From positions 3,907-67,906 of the forward strand of contig CAYFOF010000001.1 in the NCBI GenBank assembly GCA_964344655.1: a stretch of DNA of 64,000 nucleotides. The letters are read 5' to 3'. How positions within the stretch are numbered: the first letter of the stretch is position 1; each line of letters begins with the position of its first letter. Below the pieces are notes generated by a model. The model was given only the letters and a program-made list of their open reading frames with translations. It was not told the origin of the DNA and made no database searches. Source of the stretch: Candidatus Woesearchaeota archaeon. GTDB taxonomy: Archaea; Nanobdellota; Nanobdellia; SCGC-AAA011-G17; PNOQ01. The position numbers were made by a program, and so were the translations under genes. Below, piece after piece: positions 333-43,194 of the stretch.

Positions 333-2144
333 ATGGAAGCAAAAGATTTGAGGAAGAAATTTATTGAATTCTTTGTTAGTAAAGGTCATAAAAAAATTGG
401 GAATGCACCTTTGATTCCTGAGAATGATCCTACTGTTTTATTTACAACTGCAGGAATGCATCCGTTAGTTCCTTATTTATTGGGGCAAAAACATCCTTCT
501 GGAAAGAAATTAGTTAATGTTCAGAAATGTTTGAGGACTGGAGATATTGAAGAGGTTGGAGATGATGTTCATTTAACTTATTTTGATATGTTGGGGAATT
601 GGTCATTAGGAGATTATTGGAAAAAAGAAGCTATTGAGATGAGTTTTGAGTTTTTGACCTCAAAAAAATATTTGAATTTACCTGTAGATAAACTAGCTGT
701 TACTATATTTGCTGGAGATGAAGATGCTCCACAAGATTCCGATAGTGCAAAAGTTTGGAAAGATCTTGGAATAAAAAAAATTATTCCTTTAGGAAAAGAA
801 GATAATTGGTGGGGTCCCGCGGGGGAAACTGGGCCTTGTGGTCCCGATACGGAAATATTTTATTGGGATTCTGATGATCCTGTTCCAGAAGAATTTGACC
901 CTAATAATTCTACTTTGGCAACTGGTGGAAATGGGTGGGTCGAAATTTGGAACAATGTATTTATGGAATATAAAAAAGTTTTAGCAGTAAAAGATCTTAG
1001 TAAAGTACCTAAAAAAGAGAGATTTGAAAAGAAAAATATCTTCTATAATTACGAAAAATTAGAGCAAAAAAATGTTGATACTGGAATGGGATATGAAAGG
1101 GTTTATTCTATTTTAGAAGGAGTAAAAAATATTTATGAGAGTTCATTGTTTACTCCAATTATTGAAAAGATTTTAGAATTATCAACTTCTGAAGATGAAA
1201 AATCCTTGAGAATTGTAGCAGATCATTTAAGGTCAGCAGTATTTGTTTTGGCTGAGAAAGTTGTTCCTTCGAATTTAGAGCAAGGTTATGTTTTACGTAG
1301 ATTAATTAGATTGGCAATAAGAAGAGGAAAATTATTGGGGATTAAAAATAATTTTACTTCAAAAATTGCAAGAGTTGTTATTGATACTTATAAAAAAGAA
1401 TATCCCCATTTAGATAGGAATAGTTCTTTTATTATTTCTGAAATTGATAAAGAGGAAAAGAAATTTGAGAAAACTTTAGAAAAAGGAATGAGAGTTTTTG
1501 AAAAAATGGATAAGAAAGGGAAAGTTACTGGAAAAGATGCTTTCTTGTTATTCCAATCTTATGGTTTTCCGATTGAAATGACTCAAGAATTGGCCTCAGA
1601 ACATGGAATTGATGTTGATGAAAAAGGATATTATAAGGAATTGGAAAAACATCAAGAATTATCTAGGACTGCAACCAAAGGGAAGTTTGCTTCAGGGTTA
1701 GCAGATAAATCTGAAGAGACTATCAAATTACATACTGCTGCACATTTGTTGCATGCTGCTTTGATTAAGGTTTTAGGATCTTCGTGTGTTCAGAAAGGAT
1801 CTAATATTAATCCAGAAAGGTTGAGATTTGATTTTAGTTTTGATAGAAAATTAGAAGAAAAAGAAGTAAGAGAAGTTGAGGATTTAGTTAACGAACAAAT
1901 TAAGAAAGGTGTAAAAGTTGCTAAGAAAGAGATGAGTGTTGAAGAGGCTAAAAAATCTGGTGCCATGGGAGAATTTGAACATAAGTATGGAGATAAAGTA
2001 TTTGTTTATACTATGGGAAGATTTTCTAAAGAAATTTGTTCTGGCCCTCATGTGGAAAATACTTCTAAATTAGGTACGTTTAAGATTGTAAAACAAAAAT
2101 CTGTGGGTGCTGGCGTTAGAAGGATTAAAGCAGTATTGGAATAA
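333..2144 (+). CDS. alaS: alanyl-tRNA synthetase, compact 603-aa form (catalytic plus editing domains, no C-Ala domain)
   Basis: N-terminal FFxSKGH...DPTVLFTTAGM class II AlaRS signature; editing-domain HTAAHLLH and C-terminal CSGPHV motifs. Confidence 0.8.
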   Translation: MEAKDLRKKFIEFFVSKGHKKIGNAPLIPENDPTVLFTTAGMHPLVPYLLGQKHPSGKKLVNVQKCLRTGDIEEVGDDVHLTYFDMLGNWSLGDYWKKEAIEMSFEFLTSKKYLNLPVDKLAVTIFAGDEDAPQDSDSAKVWKDLGIKKIIPLGKEDNWWGPAGETGPCGPDTEIFYWDSDDPVPEEFDPNNSTLATGGNGWVEIWNNVFMEYKKVLAVKDLSKVPKKERFEKKNIFYNYEKLEQKNVDTGMGYERVYSILEGVKNIYESSLFTPIIEKILELSTSEDEKSLRIVADHLRSAVFVLAEKVVPSNLEQGYVLRRLIRLAIRRGKLLGIKNNFTSKIARVVIDTYKKEYPHLDRNSSFIISEIDKEEKKFEKTLEKGMRVFEKMDKKGKVTGKDAFLLFQSYGFPIEMTQELASEHGIDVDEKGYYKELEKHQELSRTATKGKFASGLADKSEETIKLHTAAHLLHAALIKVLGSSCVQKGSNINPERLRFDFSFDRKLEEKEVREVEDLVNEQIKKGVKVAKKEMSVEEAKKSGAMGEFEHKYGDKVFVYTMGRFSKEICSGPHVENTSKLGTFKIVKQKSVGAGVRRIKAVLE

Positions 2145-3562: not shown

Positions 3563-6141
3563 TCAAATAAAATAGAAGGTTTTCCCGGCATTGCTTTTTG
3601 ATCGTCTTTCTTTATTTCTATTTTCAAATTAAACTCTTTTTTTAATTTTTCAGTGTTTGTTTTAAGCTCATTTAATTCTTTTTCTTGAGTTAAGACTATT
3701 TCAGGAAGTTTTTTTGGATTTTTTATAAAAGAAGGCACTAATTTAGAAATTTCTTTTGCGTGTTGTTTTATCATTACTTTCTTTATTATTCTTGAAATGT
3801 CGAAATCTTTTTCCATTTCTTTTTTAATTTTTTTAATTAATTCATATTTCCAAGATTCTGAAACCGAAATTGTAACCTTAGTTGGTTTTTTCTTTACGAA
3901 TTTAGAAATATTATGAATATCTTTTATTGTATTTGAAATAAATTCATCTAGAGCATCCAATTCTGGGTTAATTTTCTTTTCATCGTGCTTTGGCCATTTA
4001 GAAAGTGAAATTAAATCTTTATTTATTTTAGACCAAAGCTCTTCTGCTAAATGTGGACAGAATGGAGAAATTAATTTTAATGCGGATTCAAAATCTTTTT
4101 TTGAGATTTCTTCTTCTAGAGAATCAAATAATTTTTTAATTTCTATTATTGCTAAATTATATTTTATTTCTTCTAGGTATTGTGTTACTTTTTTTATTGC
4201 GTTATTTATTTTATGTTGTGTTTTTTTAGAAGATTTTCCAATTTTGAATTTTTTATCATATACTCTTGAAACAAATTTATGATTGCTTTCTAGTCCCCGT
4301 GTGTCCCAGTTGAAATCTTTATCAGGGTTTGCAACAGAAACTAAAAACATTCTTAGAGCATCTGTGCTGTAGTTTTTTATCATATCTAATGGATCTATTA
4401 CGTTTCCATAAGATTTTGACATTTTTCTTCCATCTTCAGCGTGAACCATTCCTTGATTGAATTGTTTTATTGCGGGTTCATTGAAGCTTAATAGTTTTAA
4501 ATCTCTCAAGAACTTAGTATAGAATCTTATGTAGATTAAATGCATACATGCGTGTTCTCTTCCCCCAATGTAGAAATCTACAGGACACCAATATTTTGCT
4601 TTAGTTTTGTCAAATATTGCTTTTGAATTTTTTGGATCTGTGTATCTTAGGAAATACCAAGAAGAATTTACGAAAGTATCCATTGTATCTGTTTCTCGTT
4701 TTGCTTGACCTTTACATTTTGGACATTTTACATTTACAAAGTCTTTATGTTTTTCTAGTGGATTTTCTCCTTCTTTTAATTTTACATCTTCTGGAAGTTT
4801 AACTGGAAGATTTTTTTCAGGAATCTCTCCGCATTTTTCACAGTGTATTATTGGAATTGGGGTTCCCCAGAATCTTTGTCTGGAAATTAACCAGTCTTTT
4901 AATCTGTAATTTATAGTTTTTTTACCTAGTTTTAATTTTGTTAGATGTTTTGTTATTTCTTCTTTTGCTTTTTCTGAATCTAATTTATTGAATTTATCAG
5001 AATTAACTAGAATTCCTTTTTCTATGTAAGCGTGTTTCATATCTTTTTCATTTAGTGTTTTATTTTCTGGGGATATTACAACTTTTATTGGGATTTTGTA
5101 TTTTCTAGCAAATTCAAAATCTCTTTGATCGTGAGCAGGAACTGCCATTACCATTCCAGAGCCGTATGAAGCAAGAACGAAATTTCCAGCATAAATCGGA
5201 AGTTTTTCTTTTGTTAACGGATGAGTTGCATAAGATCCTGTGAAAACTCCTTCTTTTTCTAGTTTATCTATGTCTTCTTCTGAGACTGAAGTTAATTTTT
5301 CTGTGAATTTTTCTATTTCTTCTTCTTGTTTTTCAGTAACTAGGTTCATTAAGTCTGGATGTTGAGCTGAAACCACTAAGAATGTTACTCCATATAATGT
5401 ATCTGGGCGTGTTGTGAAAACTTTCCATTTCTTTTTATTTATTTCAAAATTAATTTCTGTTCCATAAGATTTTCCAATCCAATTTTTTTGAAGTTTTTTA
5501 ATTTCTTCCGGCCAATCTTTTAATTTTTTTATTCCTTCATATAACTCGTCTGCGTATTCTGTTGTTTTAAGGAACCATTGGTTAAGGTTTTTTACTTGTA
5601 CGGTTGTATCTTCATGCCTCCAACATTTTCCATCATGAACTTGTTCATTTGCCAATACAGTATTACATTTTGGGCACCAATTAACTGGAGCTTCTTTTTT
5701 GTAAGCTAAACCTTTTTTGTACATTTGTAAGAAAATCCATTGATCCCATTTGTAATAGTCTGGGTTTGATGTTGAGATTAATCTAGACCAATCATAAGAG
5801 AAACCTAATTTTTTTTGTTGCTTTATGAAATTTTTAATTGCTTCTTCTGTGAATTTTTTTGGGTGTTCTTTTGCTTTTATTGCAGCGTTTTCTGCTGGAA
5901 GCCCAAAAGAATCGTATCCAACTGGATAAAGAACGTTAAAATTATTCATTCTCTTAAATCTTGCAATGATATCTGTTATTGTGAAATTAAATGCGTGTCC
6001 TATGTGTAATCCTGAACCTGAAGGATATGGAAACATCTCTAATGCGTAGAATTTCTTTTTTGTTGATTTTTTTACTTCAAAGGCTTTGGTTTTTTCCCAC
6101 TTATCCTGCCATTTTTGTTCTATTGCTTTGAAGTCTGTCAT
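3559..6141 (-). CDS. leuS: leucyl-tRNA synthetase, bacterial type
   Basis: MFPYPSGSGLHIGH, GYDWSR, VNWCP...TVLANEQV, NWIG and KMSKS motifs, colinear with bacterial LeuRS. Confidence 0.85.
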   Translation of the reverse strand: MTDFKAIEQKWQDKWEKTKAFEVKKSTKKKFYALEMFPYPSGSGLHIGHAFNFTITDIIARFKRMNNFNVLYPVGYDSFGLPAENAAIKAKEHPKKFTEEAIKNFIKQQKKLGFSYDWSRLISTSNPDYYKWDQWIFLQMYKKGLAYKKEAPVNWCPKCNTVLANEQVHDGKCWRHEDTTVQVKNLNQWFLKTTEYADELYEGIKKLKDWPEEIKKLQKNWIGKSYGTEINFEINKKKWKVFTTRPDTLYGVTFLVVSAQHPDLMNLVTEKQEEEIEKFTEKLTSVSEEDIDKLEKEGVFTGSYATHPLTKEKLPIYAGNFVLASYGSGMVMAVPAHDQRDFEFARKYKIPIKVVISPENKTLNEKDMKHAYIEKGILVNSDKFNKLDSEKAKEEITKHLTKLKLGKKTINYRLKDWLISRQRFWGTPIPIIHCEKCGEIPEKNLPVKLPEDVKLKEGENPLEKHKDFVNVKCPKCKGQAKRETDTMDTFVNSSWYFLRYTDPKNSKAIFDKTKAKYWCPVDFYIGGREHACMHLIYIRFYTKFLRDLKLLSFNEPAIKQFNQGMVHAEDGRKMSKSYGNVIDPLDMIKNYSTDALRMFLVSVANPDKDFNWDTRGLESNHKFVSRVYDKKFKIGKSSKKTQHKINNAIKKVTQYLEEIKYNLAIIEIKKLFDSLEEEISKKDFESALKLISPFCPHLAEELWSKINKDLISLSKWPKHDEKKINPELDALDEFISNTIKDIHNISKFVKKKPTKVTISVSESWKYELIKKIKKEMEKDFDISRIIKKVMIKQHAKEISKLVPSFIKNPKKLPEIVLTQEKELNELKTNTEKLKKEFNLKIEIKKDDQKAMPGKPSILFD

Positions 6142-17546: not shown

Positions 17547-18617
17547 TTATCCTCCTATACTATCCTGTTTCAATTGATCTAAAAGTTGCTCGGCTTGTTT
17601 TACTGATTCTTCTGAGTAACCGCTTTGATCTGTCGTTTCTTTTGATTTTTGATCTTCCTTCGGAGCCTCTTCTGTTTTTGGCTCTTCAGTTTTTTCTTCG
17701 GCTTTAGGTTCTTCTTTTGGAACTTCTTCTTGTTTCGGTTCTTCTGATTTCTCTTCAGCCTTTGGTTCTTCCTTTGGAGTTTCTTCTGCTTTAGGTTCTT
17801 CTTCGGTTTTTTCTTCAGATTTCTCTTCAGCAGGAGTTTCATCTTCTGGAAGTTTTGATTCTATTGAAAGTTTTTCTCTTTCAGCTTTTTGTAACAAGAT
17901 TTCAACAGTTTCTTTTGTTGGATATGCTACGAAAACTGCAAGATTGAGTGCTTCAGAAGCTGCTACTTTGATTCTATCTAGGTATTCAGCTTCGTCAATA
18001 GATAATATTTCGCTATCAAATACGTCTCCGTTTTGATAAATTGCTTTTATGTTTAATCCGATTTCCATCGGTTCGATTCCGAATTTAGCAAGCATATCGG
18101 ATTGTGCTTGAGAAATTTCTTCATCTTTTTTCACAATTGTTGCTTCTTCTTTTATTACAACTTTTCCATCTTCAATTGCGGCCTTAATTCCCGCAGCACC
18201 TAGTTCTCCAATAATTGGACCCGGTGCAAATGGAGTTGGACCCTCAGGTACTTTCAAATCTTTTGGAGCTATTTGTCCAGGTTTAGCTGCAGTAGAGGAT
18301 TTATTTTTATCCAATGTTTTTGCTATTTTGAAAGCATCTTGAGTTGTGAATATTAATGCTGGCATTGAGTTTTCTAGATATTTTTCTAGTTTTTCTATGC
18401 CTTTCTTTTTTTCTTTTACTTTTTCCAAAGCTAATTTTATTAATGATTTCTTAGCTACAATTACATTAAGATTATCTCTTAACTTGTGTTTTATTTTTTG
18501 GAATTGAGCAGAAGGTAAATTTGTTAGGTCTATAATTCCAATTATGTTTTCTGATTCAAGTTTTTTAATTAACTCTGCAACTACTTGCTTTTTCTTGTCA
18601 GAAACGTGGGCTTTCAT
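17547..18617 (-). CDS. rpl10: ribosomal protein uL10 (P0) with long EEPKAEE-repeat C-terminal extension
   Basis: N-terminal uL10 domain, stalk operon context. Confidence 0.85.
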
Positions 18618-37999: not shown

Positions 38000-38182
38000 C
38001 CTTCTTTTTTTATTTGGAAAAACTTAAAAGATATGGAGATTAATTAGAAATATGGCGAATGTGGATTCAGGAAGGAAATCGAAACGTGATAAAAAAGCCA
38101 AATCTAGATATAATATTTATAAAAAAGGTGGCGGCAAACGAACATTAAAATTAAAAAATAAAAAATAAAAACTTAGAAATAT

Positions 38183-38539
38183 TTATCTTCTTTTCTTTTT
38201 AGTTGCTTTTTTCTTAATTGCTTTCTTTTTTACAGGTTTTTTCTTTACAGCCTTTTTCTTAACTACTTTTTTCTTAGCAGGTTTTTTCTTAACAGCTTTT
38301 CTTGCTTTAGCTAAACTTCTTTTTGCTTTAGTAACTTTCTTTTTATCAGCAACTACTTTCTTTTTAGCCTTAGAAACCTTCTTTTTATCAGTAGCCATTT
38401 TTTTCTTAGCCATCTTTAATTTTGTTTTGGCCTTGTTTACTCTTTTTTTAGCAACTGTAACTTTTTTCTTTACTGCTTTTTTCTTAACAACTTTCTTCTT
38501 TGCTGTTTTTTTCTTAGCAGGTTTTTTTCTTGCGACCAT
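38183..38539 (-). CDS. lysine/alanine-rich histone H1-like basic protein with internal KKK(A/V)VKKK repeats
   Basis: 118 aa with more than 50 percent K/R/A; periodic repeats visible in the DNA. Confidence 0.45.
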   Translation of the reverse strand: MVARKKPAKKKTAKKKVVKKKAVKKKVTVAKKRVNKAKTKLKMAKKKMATDKKKVSKAKKKVVADKKKVTKAKRSLAKARKAVKKKPAKKKVVKKKAVKKKPVKKKAIKKKATKKKRR

Positions 38540-38654
38540 TAATGGACACCTCCTTTTTTGAAATTAAATCAAAACTTAATTAATTTTTATTTAAAAGATT
38601 TATAAACCTTTTCTTTTTGAAAAAACTTTTAAACTCTCGACGAAGATTATAATT

Positions 38655-39065
38655 ATGAAGTTCAAATATTTACCGCACACAGCAGATGCAAAATTTGTTG
38701 CTTATGGGAAGGATATCGACGAGGTTTTTGCAAATTCAGCGTTAGCTATGTTCAATATTTTGGGGGATACTAGTAAAGTAAAAGTTACAAAAAAAATTGA
38801 AATTAAATTAAAAGGTAAAAGTTTTGAAAATTTGTTGTATGATTTTCTAGAAGAGTTATTATTCTTATTGGAAACAGAAAATTTATTTTTATCTTCGGTA
38901 AAAAATCTAAAAATTGATAAAGAATTTAATCTAAGTTGTGTTGCCGAGGGAGATGAGATTAGTAATTATGAATTAAAGAGCGATATAAAAGCTGTAACTT
39001 ACAGCGATATGAAAATTAGTAAGACTAATAAAGGGCATGAAGCGACTGTTGTTGTGGATATTTAG
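38655..39065 (+). CDS. archease (RtcB activator)
   Basis: N-terminal FKYLPHTADAKF archease signature. Confidence 0.75.
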   Translation: MKFKYLPHTADAKFVAYGKDIDEVFANSALAMFNILGDTSKVKVTKKIEIKLKGKSFENLLYDFLEELLFLLETENLFLSSVKNLKIDKEFNLSCVAEGDEISNYELKSDIKAVTYSDMKISKTNKGHEATVVVDI

Positions 39066-40484: not shown

Positions 40485-40555
40485 GGGCCTGTAGTGTAAT
40501 GGTATCACGGGGGGCTGGCAGTCCCTAGACCCGAGTTCGATTCTCGGCAGGTCCA
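40485..40555 (+). tRNA. tRNA-Ala (anticodon GGC)
   Basis: Acceptor GGGCCTG/CAGGTCC with the G3-U70 Ala identity pair, anticodon loop CTGGCAG, T-arm CCGAG-TTCGATT-CTCGG, discriminator A. Confidence 0.8.
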
Positions 40556-42876: not shown

Positions 42877-43194
42877 TTATTTCTTTTTGATTGTTATTTC
42901 CATAGTTGAAACTCGAACTTGTTTTCCTTCTTTGTTTTCGAATTCTTCACTGTCTATCTTTATGTCAGAAATTTCAACAGTATCTTCTAAAAATCTTTTA
43001 GTAGCTACTTCAGCAATATCTACTCCTCTAGAAATAAATTTTCCTCTTGATTTTATAACAACTTCTTTTGCATTTTGAGTTGTGAACTGCATTACGACTC
43101 CCGTAACATAGTTCATGAATGGCTTTCCGCCAACAAACACTACACTGTCGTCACTTTTCTTCACTTTTTTATCATTTGAGTTGTCTTCAGTCAT
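42877..43194 (-). CDS. albA: Alba DNA/RNA-binding chromatin protein
   Basis: VVFVGGKPFMNYVTGVV...VIKSRGKFISRGVDIAE...RVSTMEITIKKK matches Alba. Confidence 0.8.
   Translation of the reverse strand: MTEDNSNDKKVKKSDDSVVFVGGKPFMNYVTGVVMQFTTQNAKEVVIKSRGKFISRGVDIAEVATKRFLEDTVEISDIKIDSEEFENKEGKQVRVSTMEITIKKK

Follow-up and report, generated by a model that had tools for sequence, protein, structure and literature searches.

What does a reading frame built almost wholly of lysine, alanine and valine do in an archaeal genome, and does it encode a protein at all? The question is raised by an ORF of 118 codons in a stretch of DNA of 64 kb, referred to here as the window. The window is archaeal and AT-rich (31% GC), and a comparison through archease places it closest to MAGs that carry the label Candidatus Woesearchaeota or Nanoarchaeum (DPANN). 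A preliminary description had singled out the ORF for its composition and for a likeness to Hc1, AlgP and histone H1, and had reported a basic micro-ORF of 38 codons beside it. The composition of the former is confirmed, and orthologues as well as expression signals support that it is a genuine gene. The latter is present with the sequence then given and belongs to a conserved family. The features of both are listed in Table 1.

Genomic setting and coding evidence

The lysine-rich gene is surrounded by genes for an ArsR-type regulator, thioredoxin reductase, thioredoxin, archease, RtcB, tRNA-Ala, a Na+/H+ exchanger and Alba. The Alba gene, correctly placed by the preliminary description at 42877..43194 (PF01918, E = 6e-16), is separate from the lysine-rich ORF. 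The latter forms a divergent pair with archease (38655..39065, +). Its arrangement with the micro-ORF, described earlier as divergent, is in fact convergent, tail to tail, with the stop codons 14 nt apart. As both genes end in lysine codons, each transcript runs past its stop codon into T-rich sequence. This sequence (38140..38240), antisense to the 3′ end of the partner gene, may be an archaeal oligo-T terminator, through which termination of the two genes may be mutual. Farther along the window lies a block of ribosomal-protein-like genes. Elsewhere in the window, at 17547..18617 (-), the gene for a ribosomal P0/uL10-like protein encodes a long acidic tail of EEPKAEE-type repeats ahead of the stalk C-terminus; a false lysine-rich ORF of 80 aa at 17600..17842 (-) is an alternate frame of this repeat. 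The first base of tRNA-Ala(GGC) (40485..40555) directly follows the stop codon of rtcB, the gene for the tRNA ligase (40484/40485), which suggests that it is co-transcribed with the archease-RtcB operon.

Table 1. Features of the lysine-rich gene and of the convergent micro-ORF, in window coordinates.
Feature	Position	Strand	Basis
Putative BRE/TATA-like element of the micro-ORF, GGAAAAA-CTTAAAAG, ~26 nt 5′ of its ATG	38016..38030	+	sequence
Basic micro-protein CDS, 38 aa, MANVDSGRKSKRDKKAKSRYNIYKKGGGKRTLKLKNKK	38052..38168	+	family of clusters, invariant residues, dN/dS
Spacer between the two convergent stop codons	38169..38182	.	14 nt, sequence
Polylysine repeat protein CDS, 118 aa	38183..38539 (stop included)	-	ORF list, translation, positional orthologues
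C-terminal basic arm, residues 84-118, seven xxKKK pentamers ending KKKRR	38186..38290	-	TRF period 15, 6.4 copies
Central heptad region, residues 27-83 (57 residues)	38291..38461	-	periodicity power, AF2
N-terminal basic arm, residues 1-26, M-VARKK-PAKKK-TAKKK-VVKKK-AVKKK	38462..38539	-	xxKKK pentamers x5, 15-nt tandem period
Shine-Dalgarno sequence of the lysine-rich gene, AAGGAGGTG, 9 nt, 7 nt 5′ of ATG	38547..38555	-	sequence
Putative BRE/TATA-like element of the lysine-rich gene, AGAAAAGG-TTTATAAA, ~63 nt 5′ of ATG	38599..38614	-	sequence

Positional orthologues of the lysine-rich gene were found at 11 further distinct loci (L003-L008, L013, L015-L017 and L049; L014 was left out of the count as a duplicate of L003), always between the micro-ORF and archease. 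Together with these orthologues, the upstream region indicates that the gene carries signals predicted to give strong expression. Its Shine-Dalgarno sequence, AAGGAGGTG, matches the anti-Shine-Dalgarno sequence over a longer stretch than that of any other of the 79 ORFs of the window, the runners-up, ribosomal stalk genes included, reaching 7 nt. A GGAGGTG core is kept in most orthologues, with the variants GGAGGAA in L006 and AGAGGTG in L039. Farther upstream, an A-rich stretch followed by TTATAAA keeps a constant distance to the ATG across all orthologues. By the known BRE/TATA consensus, this element (AGAAAAGG-TTTATAAA) would be an archaeal promoter giving a 5′ UTR of about 40 nt. A scan for sigma-70 promoters and intrinsic terminators was set aside, being inapplicable to an archaeon.

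The coding sequence itself also agrees with a translated frame. In comparisons with L003 and L007, dN/dS is 0.11-0.15 and indels are in frame; of the 48 nucleotides that differ from L003, 30 are third codon positions. Moreover, AAG makes up 36% of the lysine codons in the ORF vs 13-14% in the rest of the window, and the longest A-run measures 7-8 nt in all eight orthologues analysed vs about 10 nt in shuffled controls (P ≤ 0.001 for seven of them and 0.019 for the eighth). On long poly(A) tracts, ribosomes slide and polymerases slip. The placement of AAG codons fits selection against slippery poly(A) in translated lysine runs.

The preliminary description had anticipated that the ORF could be a low-complexity artefact with equally open alternative frames. 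In its broader form, this reading holds that the locus is an A-rich spacer with a chance ORF, the product of the antisense strand or a non-coding element. It has some points in its favour. By our own estimate, about 0.7 ORFs of 118 codons are expected by chance in 64 kb of random sequence at 31% GC, and none of five tested lysine-rich variants occurs in a collection of 15 billion proteins (exact look-up). One antisense frame is indeed free of stop codons from end to end of the ORF, both in the window and in seven orthologues. This openness follows from the purine-rich sense strand, and the frame does not contain a single ATG in the window or in any of the seven orthologues. Its dN/dS is also low (0.20, vs 0.11 for the sense frame), and dN/dS was therefore dropped as a decisive test of the reading frame. 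What speaks against a spacer is that promoter, Shine-Dalgarno sequence and ATG are conserved in front of the sense frame only, that the termini are kept (MV..KK at the start, KKKRR at the end), that the frame is maintained through many gains and losses of repeats, and that the AAG codons are placed non-randomly. Besides, Rfam has no family matching at the locus, and on two ENA contigs the identical protein is annotated by an independent gene caller. We consider it highly improbable that the locus is non-functional in this sense, and are confident that the ORF is a real protein-coding gene. Gene calls for the window protein thus exist on contigs, although the five lysine-rich variants tested are missing from the 15-billion-protein collection.

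Repeat architecture and length variation

The protein contains 58 K, 18 A, 16 V, 6 R, 6 T and 3 Pro, with only two acidic residues. Lysine thus accounts for 49% and lysine plus arginine for 54% of the residues, the pI is 12.0 and the net charge about +61. The periodic lysine repeats reported earlier can also be seen in the DNA: TRF detects period-15 arrays at both ends of the gene (38205-38300, 6.4 copies; 38461-38527, 4.5 copies), and units of 42 nt lie in the middle. At the protein level, two arms of xxKKK pentamers enclose a central region in which a hydrophobic residue occurs at every seventh position (V27, V34, L41, M48, V55, V62, V69, L76 and V83), with Ala or Asp at +3. The periodicity power of this region peaks at 7 and 3.5 residues. 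AF2, run on the single sequence, predicts one helix spanning residues 11-84, with pLDDT >90 for about residues 21-80, and a non-helical C-terminal arm; there is no globular domain. Without charge neutralisation, such an all-lysine helix would be unstable in solution. The 118-residue sequence has neither a signal peptide nor a membrane anchor.

The lysine-rich gene occurs only in a single lineage of DPANN archaea of the Woesearchaeota type: among 81 micro-ORF loci, for which about 3 kb on each side was examined, a lysine-rich neighbour is confined to the syntenic group of the window. Within this group the length of the protein differs widely. Ten members measure 118, 108, 110, 109, 96, 94, 88, 87, 85 and 78 aa. 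The orthologue in L004, at 3813..3872 (-), has 19 aa (MAAKKKATKKKATKKKAKR) and retains the promoter box, a Shine-Dalgarno sequence (GAGGAGGTG) and a hairpin terminator. The one in L017, at 920..1024 (-), has 34 aa and is rich in Arg and Thr rather than in Lys; promoter and Shine-Dalgarno sequence are retained here as well. In addition, L039 contains a lysine-rich ORF of 31 aa with a Shine-Dalgarno sequence at 887..982 (+), off the syntenic position and adjoining an Orc1/Cdc6-like gene. All three short relatives have a strong Shine-Dalgarno sequence, and two of the three are followed by a hairpin terminator. Cut-offs on ORF length would overlook them.

In the orthologues, the N-terminus MV[AK][RK]KK and a C-terminal K/R cluster are conserved. 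The central heptad pattern persists, with exchange of V, L and M, in four members (the window, L003, L007 and L049), whereas L005, L006, L008 and L013 have nothing but repeats in its place. All length differences are in frame. The clearest example is given by L015 (556..792), L005 (3618..3881) and L016 (290..580), which over more than 400 nt differ in nothing but the copy number of an exact 27-nt unit (AAGAAAAAAGTTGTAAAAAAAGTAGCT; identity otherwise 100%), yielding proteins of 78, 87 and 96 aa, respectively, in different assemblies. As exact tandem arrays of 100-160 nt are prone to short-read mis-assembly, these differences may be either a real copy-number polymorphism or a collapse of the repeat by short reads. 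The window differs from L003 by 10 aa within imperfect repeats, which makes this difference more trustworthy. The variation in repeat number between relatives that the preliminary description had proposed to look for is thus found, with the assembly caveat attached to the 27-nt units. Since the lengths range from 19 to 118 aa and one member is Arg-rich, it is charge and repeats that are conserved, and not sequence.

Comparison with known lysine-rich proteins and possible function

The 118-residue protein falls into no family of Pfam, NCBIfam or PDB. HC2 (PF07382) is the sole chromatin family that surfaces in the Pfam scans: at E ≤ 10 it gives a signal in four of seven proteins, orthologues only, of 7-14 bits (best E = 0.053; gathering score 40 bits), and the window protein does not match it even at this threshold. 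For Hc1 (PF07432), linker histone (PF00538) and the histone fold there is no Pfam match at E ≤ 10 in the seven proteins, and neither do the archaeal histone fold (PF00808), Alba, MC1, Sul7d, Cren7 or HU match the lysine-rich ORF in Pfam. A tblastn search of the window with approximate reference sequences of chromatin proteins returned noise only (E ≥ 0.4). A scan of viral contigs matched 600 patterns of which none was confirmed. Likewise, a direct homology search with the protein gave zero matches, and a profile of four orthologues run against 5.8 billion proteins yielded compositional matches only at E ≤ 10; these two homology nulls are uninformative, since proteins of this kind are missing from the collection. 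A literature search found no description of such lysine-repeat proteins in DPANN archaea, and a mention of archaeal "Hc1" in one paper turned out to concern a strain named HC1.

From the earlier proposal of a resemblance to Hc1, AlgP and H1, the analogy in lysine repeats stands and the membership does not, given the lack of any Pfam or NCBIfam match, of a globular H1 domain and of KPAA repeats. Judged by its sequence, the protein is an analogue of polycations of the H1-tail and Hc2 type, and not a member of Hc1, Hc2, AlgP or H1. Closest in design is chlamydial Hc2 (HctB), which consists of lysine-rich pentamers with A, V, T and P as the other residues, changes its length as repeat units are duplicated or deleted in frame, and binds DNA as well as RNA, the latter with high affinity (PMC2848022). 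Consecutive lysine-rich pentamers, an evenly spread charge, in-frame length variation and the absence of a globular domain are shared with the protein described here. However, the latter has three basic residues per pentamer instead of two, its family lacks the 36-aa higher-order element of Hc2, some members have a heptad helix, and the host is an archaeon. The shared pentamers and in-frame length variation are no evidence of common descent, and the likeness is very probably convergent.

The C-terminal domain of histone H1 is, like the window protein, K/A-rich, disordered and indel-prone, and it neutralises DNA charge. Unlike H1, the window protein has no winged-helix globular domain and no S/TPKK motifs, and it is Val-rich and Pro-poor. 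Hc1 (HctA) combines a helical self-association module with a lysine-rich DNA-binding region (PMC2848022), an organization that the central helix and arms resemble. Here, however, the helix has a basic arm on either side, is rich in lysine itself and does not occur in half of the orthologues. AlgP, Bordetella BpH1 and BpH2, mycobacterial HupB/Hlp and Ku tails are described as carrying lysine repeats (KPAA, PAKKA) in variable number that bind DNA or, in the case of AlgP, polyphosphate (PMC3553676; PMC9239181). Their repeats are mostly tails on folded domains, whereas the window protein is a repeat throughout, with xxKKK as the unit; it has no KPAA-type tetrapeptide repeats, and NCBIfam gives no relevant match. 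An essentially identical unit, KKKAAKKKVTKKKTTKKKAVKKK, occurs in C-terminal fragments of bacterial topoisomerase I (P0110, P0111; PF13368), where it is an appendage of a DNA enzyme, unlike in the window protein. These matches are compositional (E ≥ 2) and do not provide evidence of homology. The unit also occurs in a few small proteins, among them one of 81 aa (P0109) that has near-identical xxKKK pentamers and ends in KKKRR, as the window protein does. The xxKKK repeat seems to have been recruited recurrently, and probably convergently, as a DNA-binding appendage.

How might such a protein work? We favour, with moderate confidence, a polycation whose charge would hold it to nucleic acid, most likely to chromosomal DNA, by means of flexible arms flanking a helix. 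The two xxKKK arms (residues 1-26 and 84-118), on either side of the amphipathic heptad helix of 57 residues, would bind electrostatically and independently of sequence. One molecule of 118 aa would neutralise about 60 phosphates, or roughly 30 bp, and the DNA would be condensed or bridged in the manner of the histone H1 C-terminal tail, chlamydial Hc2 and protamines. Neutralised molecules could self-associate along the narrow V/L/M-Ala seam of the central helix, thereby bridging duplexes, and the length of the protein could be tuned by in-frame gain or loss of repeat units. Nucleic-acid binding, the DNA target and bridging are features that we infer by analogy with these systems. A coiled-coil homodimer of the central helix is speculation, since all flanking heptad positions are Lys and would be mutually repulsive unless neutralised. 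Furthermore, bridging by the helix cannot be a conserved core function, as the central helix is absent from half of the orthologues and the smallest orthologue has only 19 aa.

As low-complexity polycations bind any polyanion, DNA is not established as the target, and other partners have to be weighed. Moreover, an additional compaction factor is not obviously needed, because histone and Alba genes have been reported for Woesearchaeota (PMC6136690). For the same reason, and because the window is a 64-kb section of a larger genome, no weight attaches to the remark in the preliminary description that no histone fold was seen in it.

One such partner is RNA. The protein could be associated with RNA or the ribosome, neutralising the charge of rRNA or tRNA or serving as a chaperone, for which the basic tails of ribosomal proteins, eL41 or Hc2 in its RNA binding offer a comparison. 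This fits the strength of its Shine-Dalgarno sequence, which resembles those of the ribosomal stalk genes, the other top scorers of the window, and the size of the shortest orthologues (19-34 aa), which is that of very small basic ribosomal peptides. The promoter region shared divergently with archease-RtcB (tRNA ligase), followed by tRNA-Ala, is conserved, and the RNA affinity of Hc2 is a further precedent. We nevertheless regard an RNA or ribosomal role as a serious but rather unlikely alternative. A six-fold range in length and the swapping of helix for repeats among close relatives would be unexpected for a stoichiometric ribosomal component, and the gene was found in one sub-clade only among the 81 DPANN micro-ORF loci, within about 3 kb on each side.

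Polyphosphate or the cell surface would take the protein outside chromatin altogether, either as an AlgP-like organiser of polyphosphate granules or as a polycation of the HBHA/Hlp type by which an episymbiont adheres to its host. AlgP, with its lysine-rich H1-like repeats, is described as localising to polyphosphate granules and spacing them (PMC9239181). Lysine-rich proteins of the HBHA type are described as both adhesin and nucleoid protein (PMC10665949). The conservation of charge instead of sequence in the present family agrees with either role. Still, both are improbable: the sequence has no signal peptide, membrane anchor or KPAA-type repeat, and polyphosphate kinase or a related gene was not identified among the neighbours examined.

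The convergent micro-protein family and significance

Beyond the lysine-rich gene, the locus contains the basic micro-protein, the family of which turns out to be large. A profile built on six syntenic copies retrieved 105 clusters of 32-54 aa, and an exhaustive search of 1.84 billion representatives (50% identity) found 95 at E ≤ 0.001, nearly all of them stand-alone proteins of 32-63 aa. The core of the family is RK[ST]KRDKKAKxRYNxYKKGGxxR, with R8, K17, K25, G26, G27 and R30 being invariant, and pairwise dN/dS is mostly about 0.1-0.3. With the family alignment as input, AF2 predicts with moderate confidence (pLDDT 77) a helix at residues 11-25, a GG and a second helix at 27-35. Many members have A-rich/TTATAAAT boxes 25-33 nt 5′ of the ATG, the copy in the window being weaker; this box appears to be a leaderless-type promoter of its own. 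Database entries of the family are unnamed or called "hypothetical protein".

The micro-protein has no match in Pfam or NCBIfam, where 39 family members give noise only. Its profile finds nothing at E ≤ 10 among all PDB chains, ribosomal proteins included, and Foldseek has no match in PDB. An identity as a ribosomal protein like eS30, eL41 or Thx is accordingly unsupported by Pfam, PDB profile or Foldseek. Outside the syntenic group of the window, the micro-ORF most often (34 of the 81 loci, e.g., L043, 1111..2129) follows pilin-like genes of the class III signal-peptide type and precedes small membrane proteins and a Peptidase_A24-like (prepilin peptidase) gene, as it does in L009 and L010. 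Rare fused forms carry the motif together with an HTH domain or with a membrane or pilin-like segment (proteins in this setting are P0130, P0197 and P0192). The micro-protein is probably a small basic protein that binds nucleic acid or is associated with a cellular machinery.

Could the two genes form a functional pair, the micro-protein being a cofactor or the genes regulating each other through convergent antisense overlap? Their arrangement is suggestive, as they are convergent, with stop codons 5-52 nt apart, at all 12 distinct syntenic loci, the Arg-rich L017 and the 19-aa L004 included. On the other hand, about 68 of the 81 micro-ORF loci have no lysine-rich neighbour, lie mostly in pilin-like/Peptidase_A24 surroundings and often have their own promoter, and direct mutual binding is unlikely since both proteins are strongly basic. 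We give a functional pair little chance. The micro-protein family is more widespread than the lysine-rich gene and is not an obligate partner of its product; this wider distribution rules out an obligate pair.

New here are lysine-repeat polycations in an archaeal lineage from which none had been described earlier, and an undescribed family of micro-proteins. The chromatin of DPANN archaea is known almost solely via homology, i.e., through histones and Alba. The lysine-rich class is invisible to standard homology surveys, because the five variants tested are absent from the protein collection and the composition correction of HMMER suppresses matches. Tentatively, one ultra-small DPANN lineage may possess a dedicated and abundant polycation of plastic length (19-118 aa, Lys- or Arg-based), protamine- or H1-tail-like and evolved independently of Hc2 and H1, next to an undescribed basic family of 35-45 aa that is possibly a new nucleic-acid-binding or ribosome-associated component of Nanoarchaeota-type archaea. 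That micro-protein family is conserved, unannotated and basic, has its own putative promoter and comprises about a hundred sequence clusters of 35-45 residues. If the lysine-rich protein coats DNA, it would be an independently arisen archaeal counterpart of Hc2, H1 tails and protamines, and its change in length by repeat slippage would then be relevant to the packing of AT-rich genomes in very small cells.
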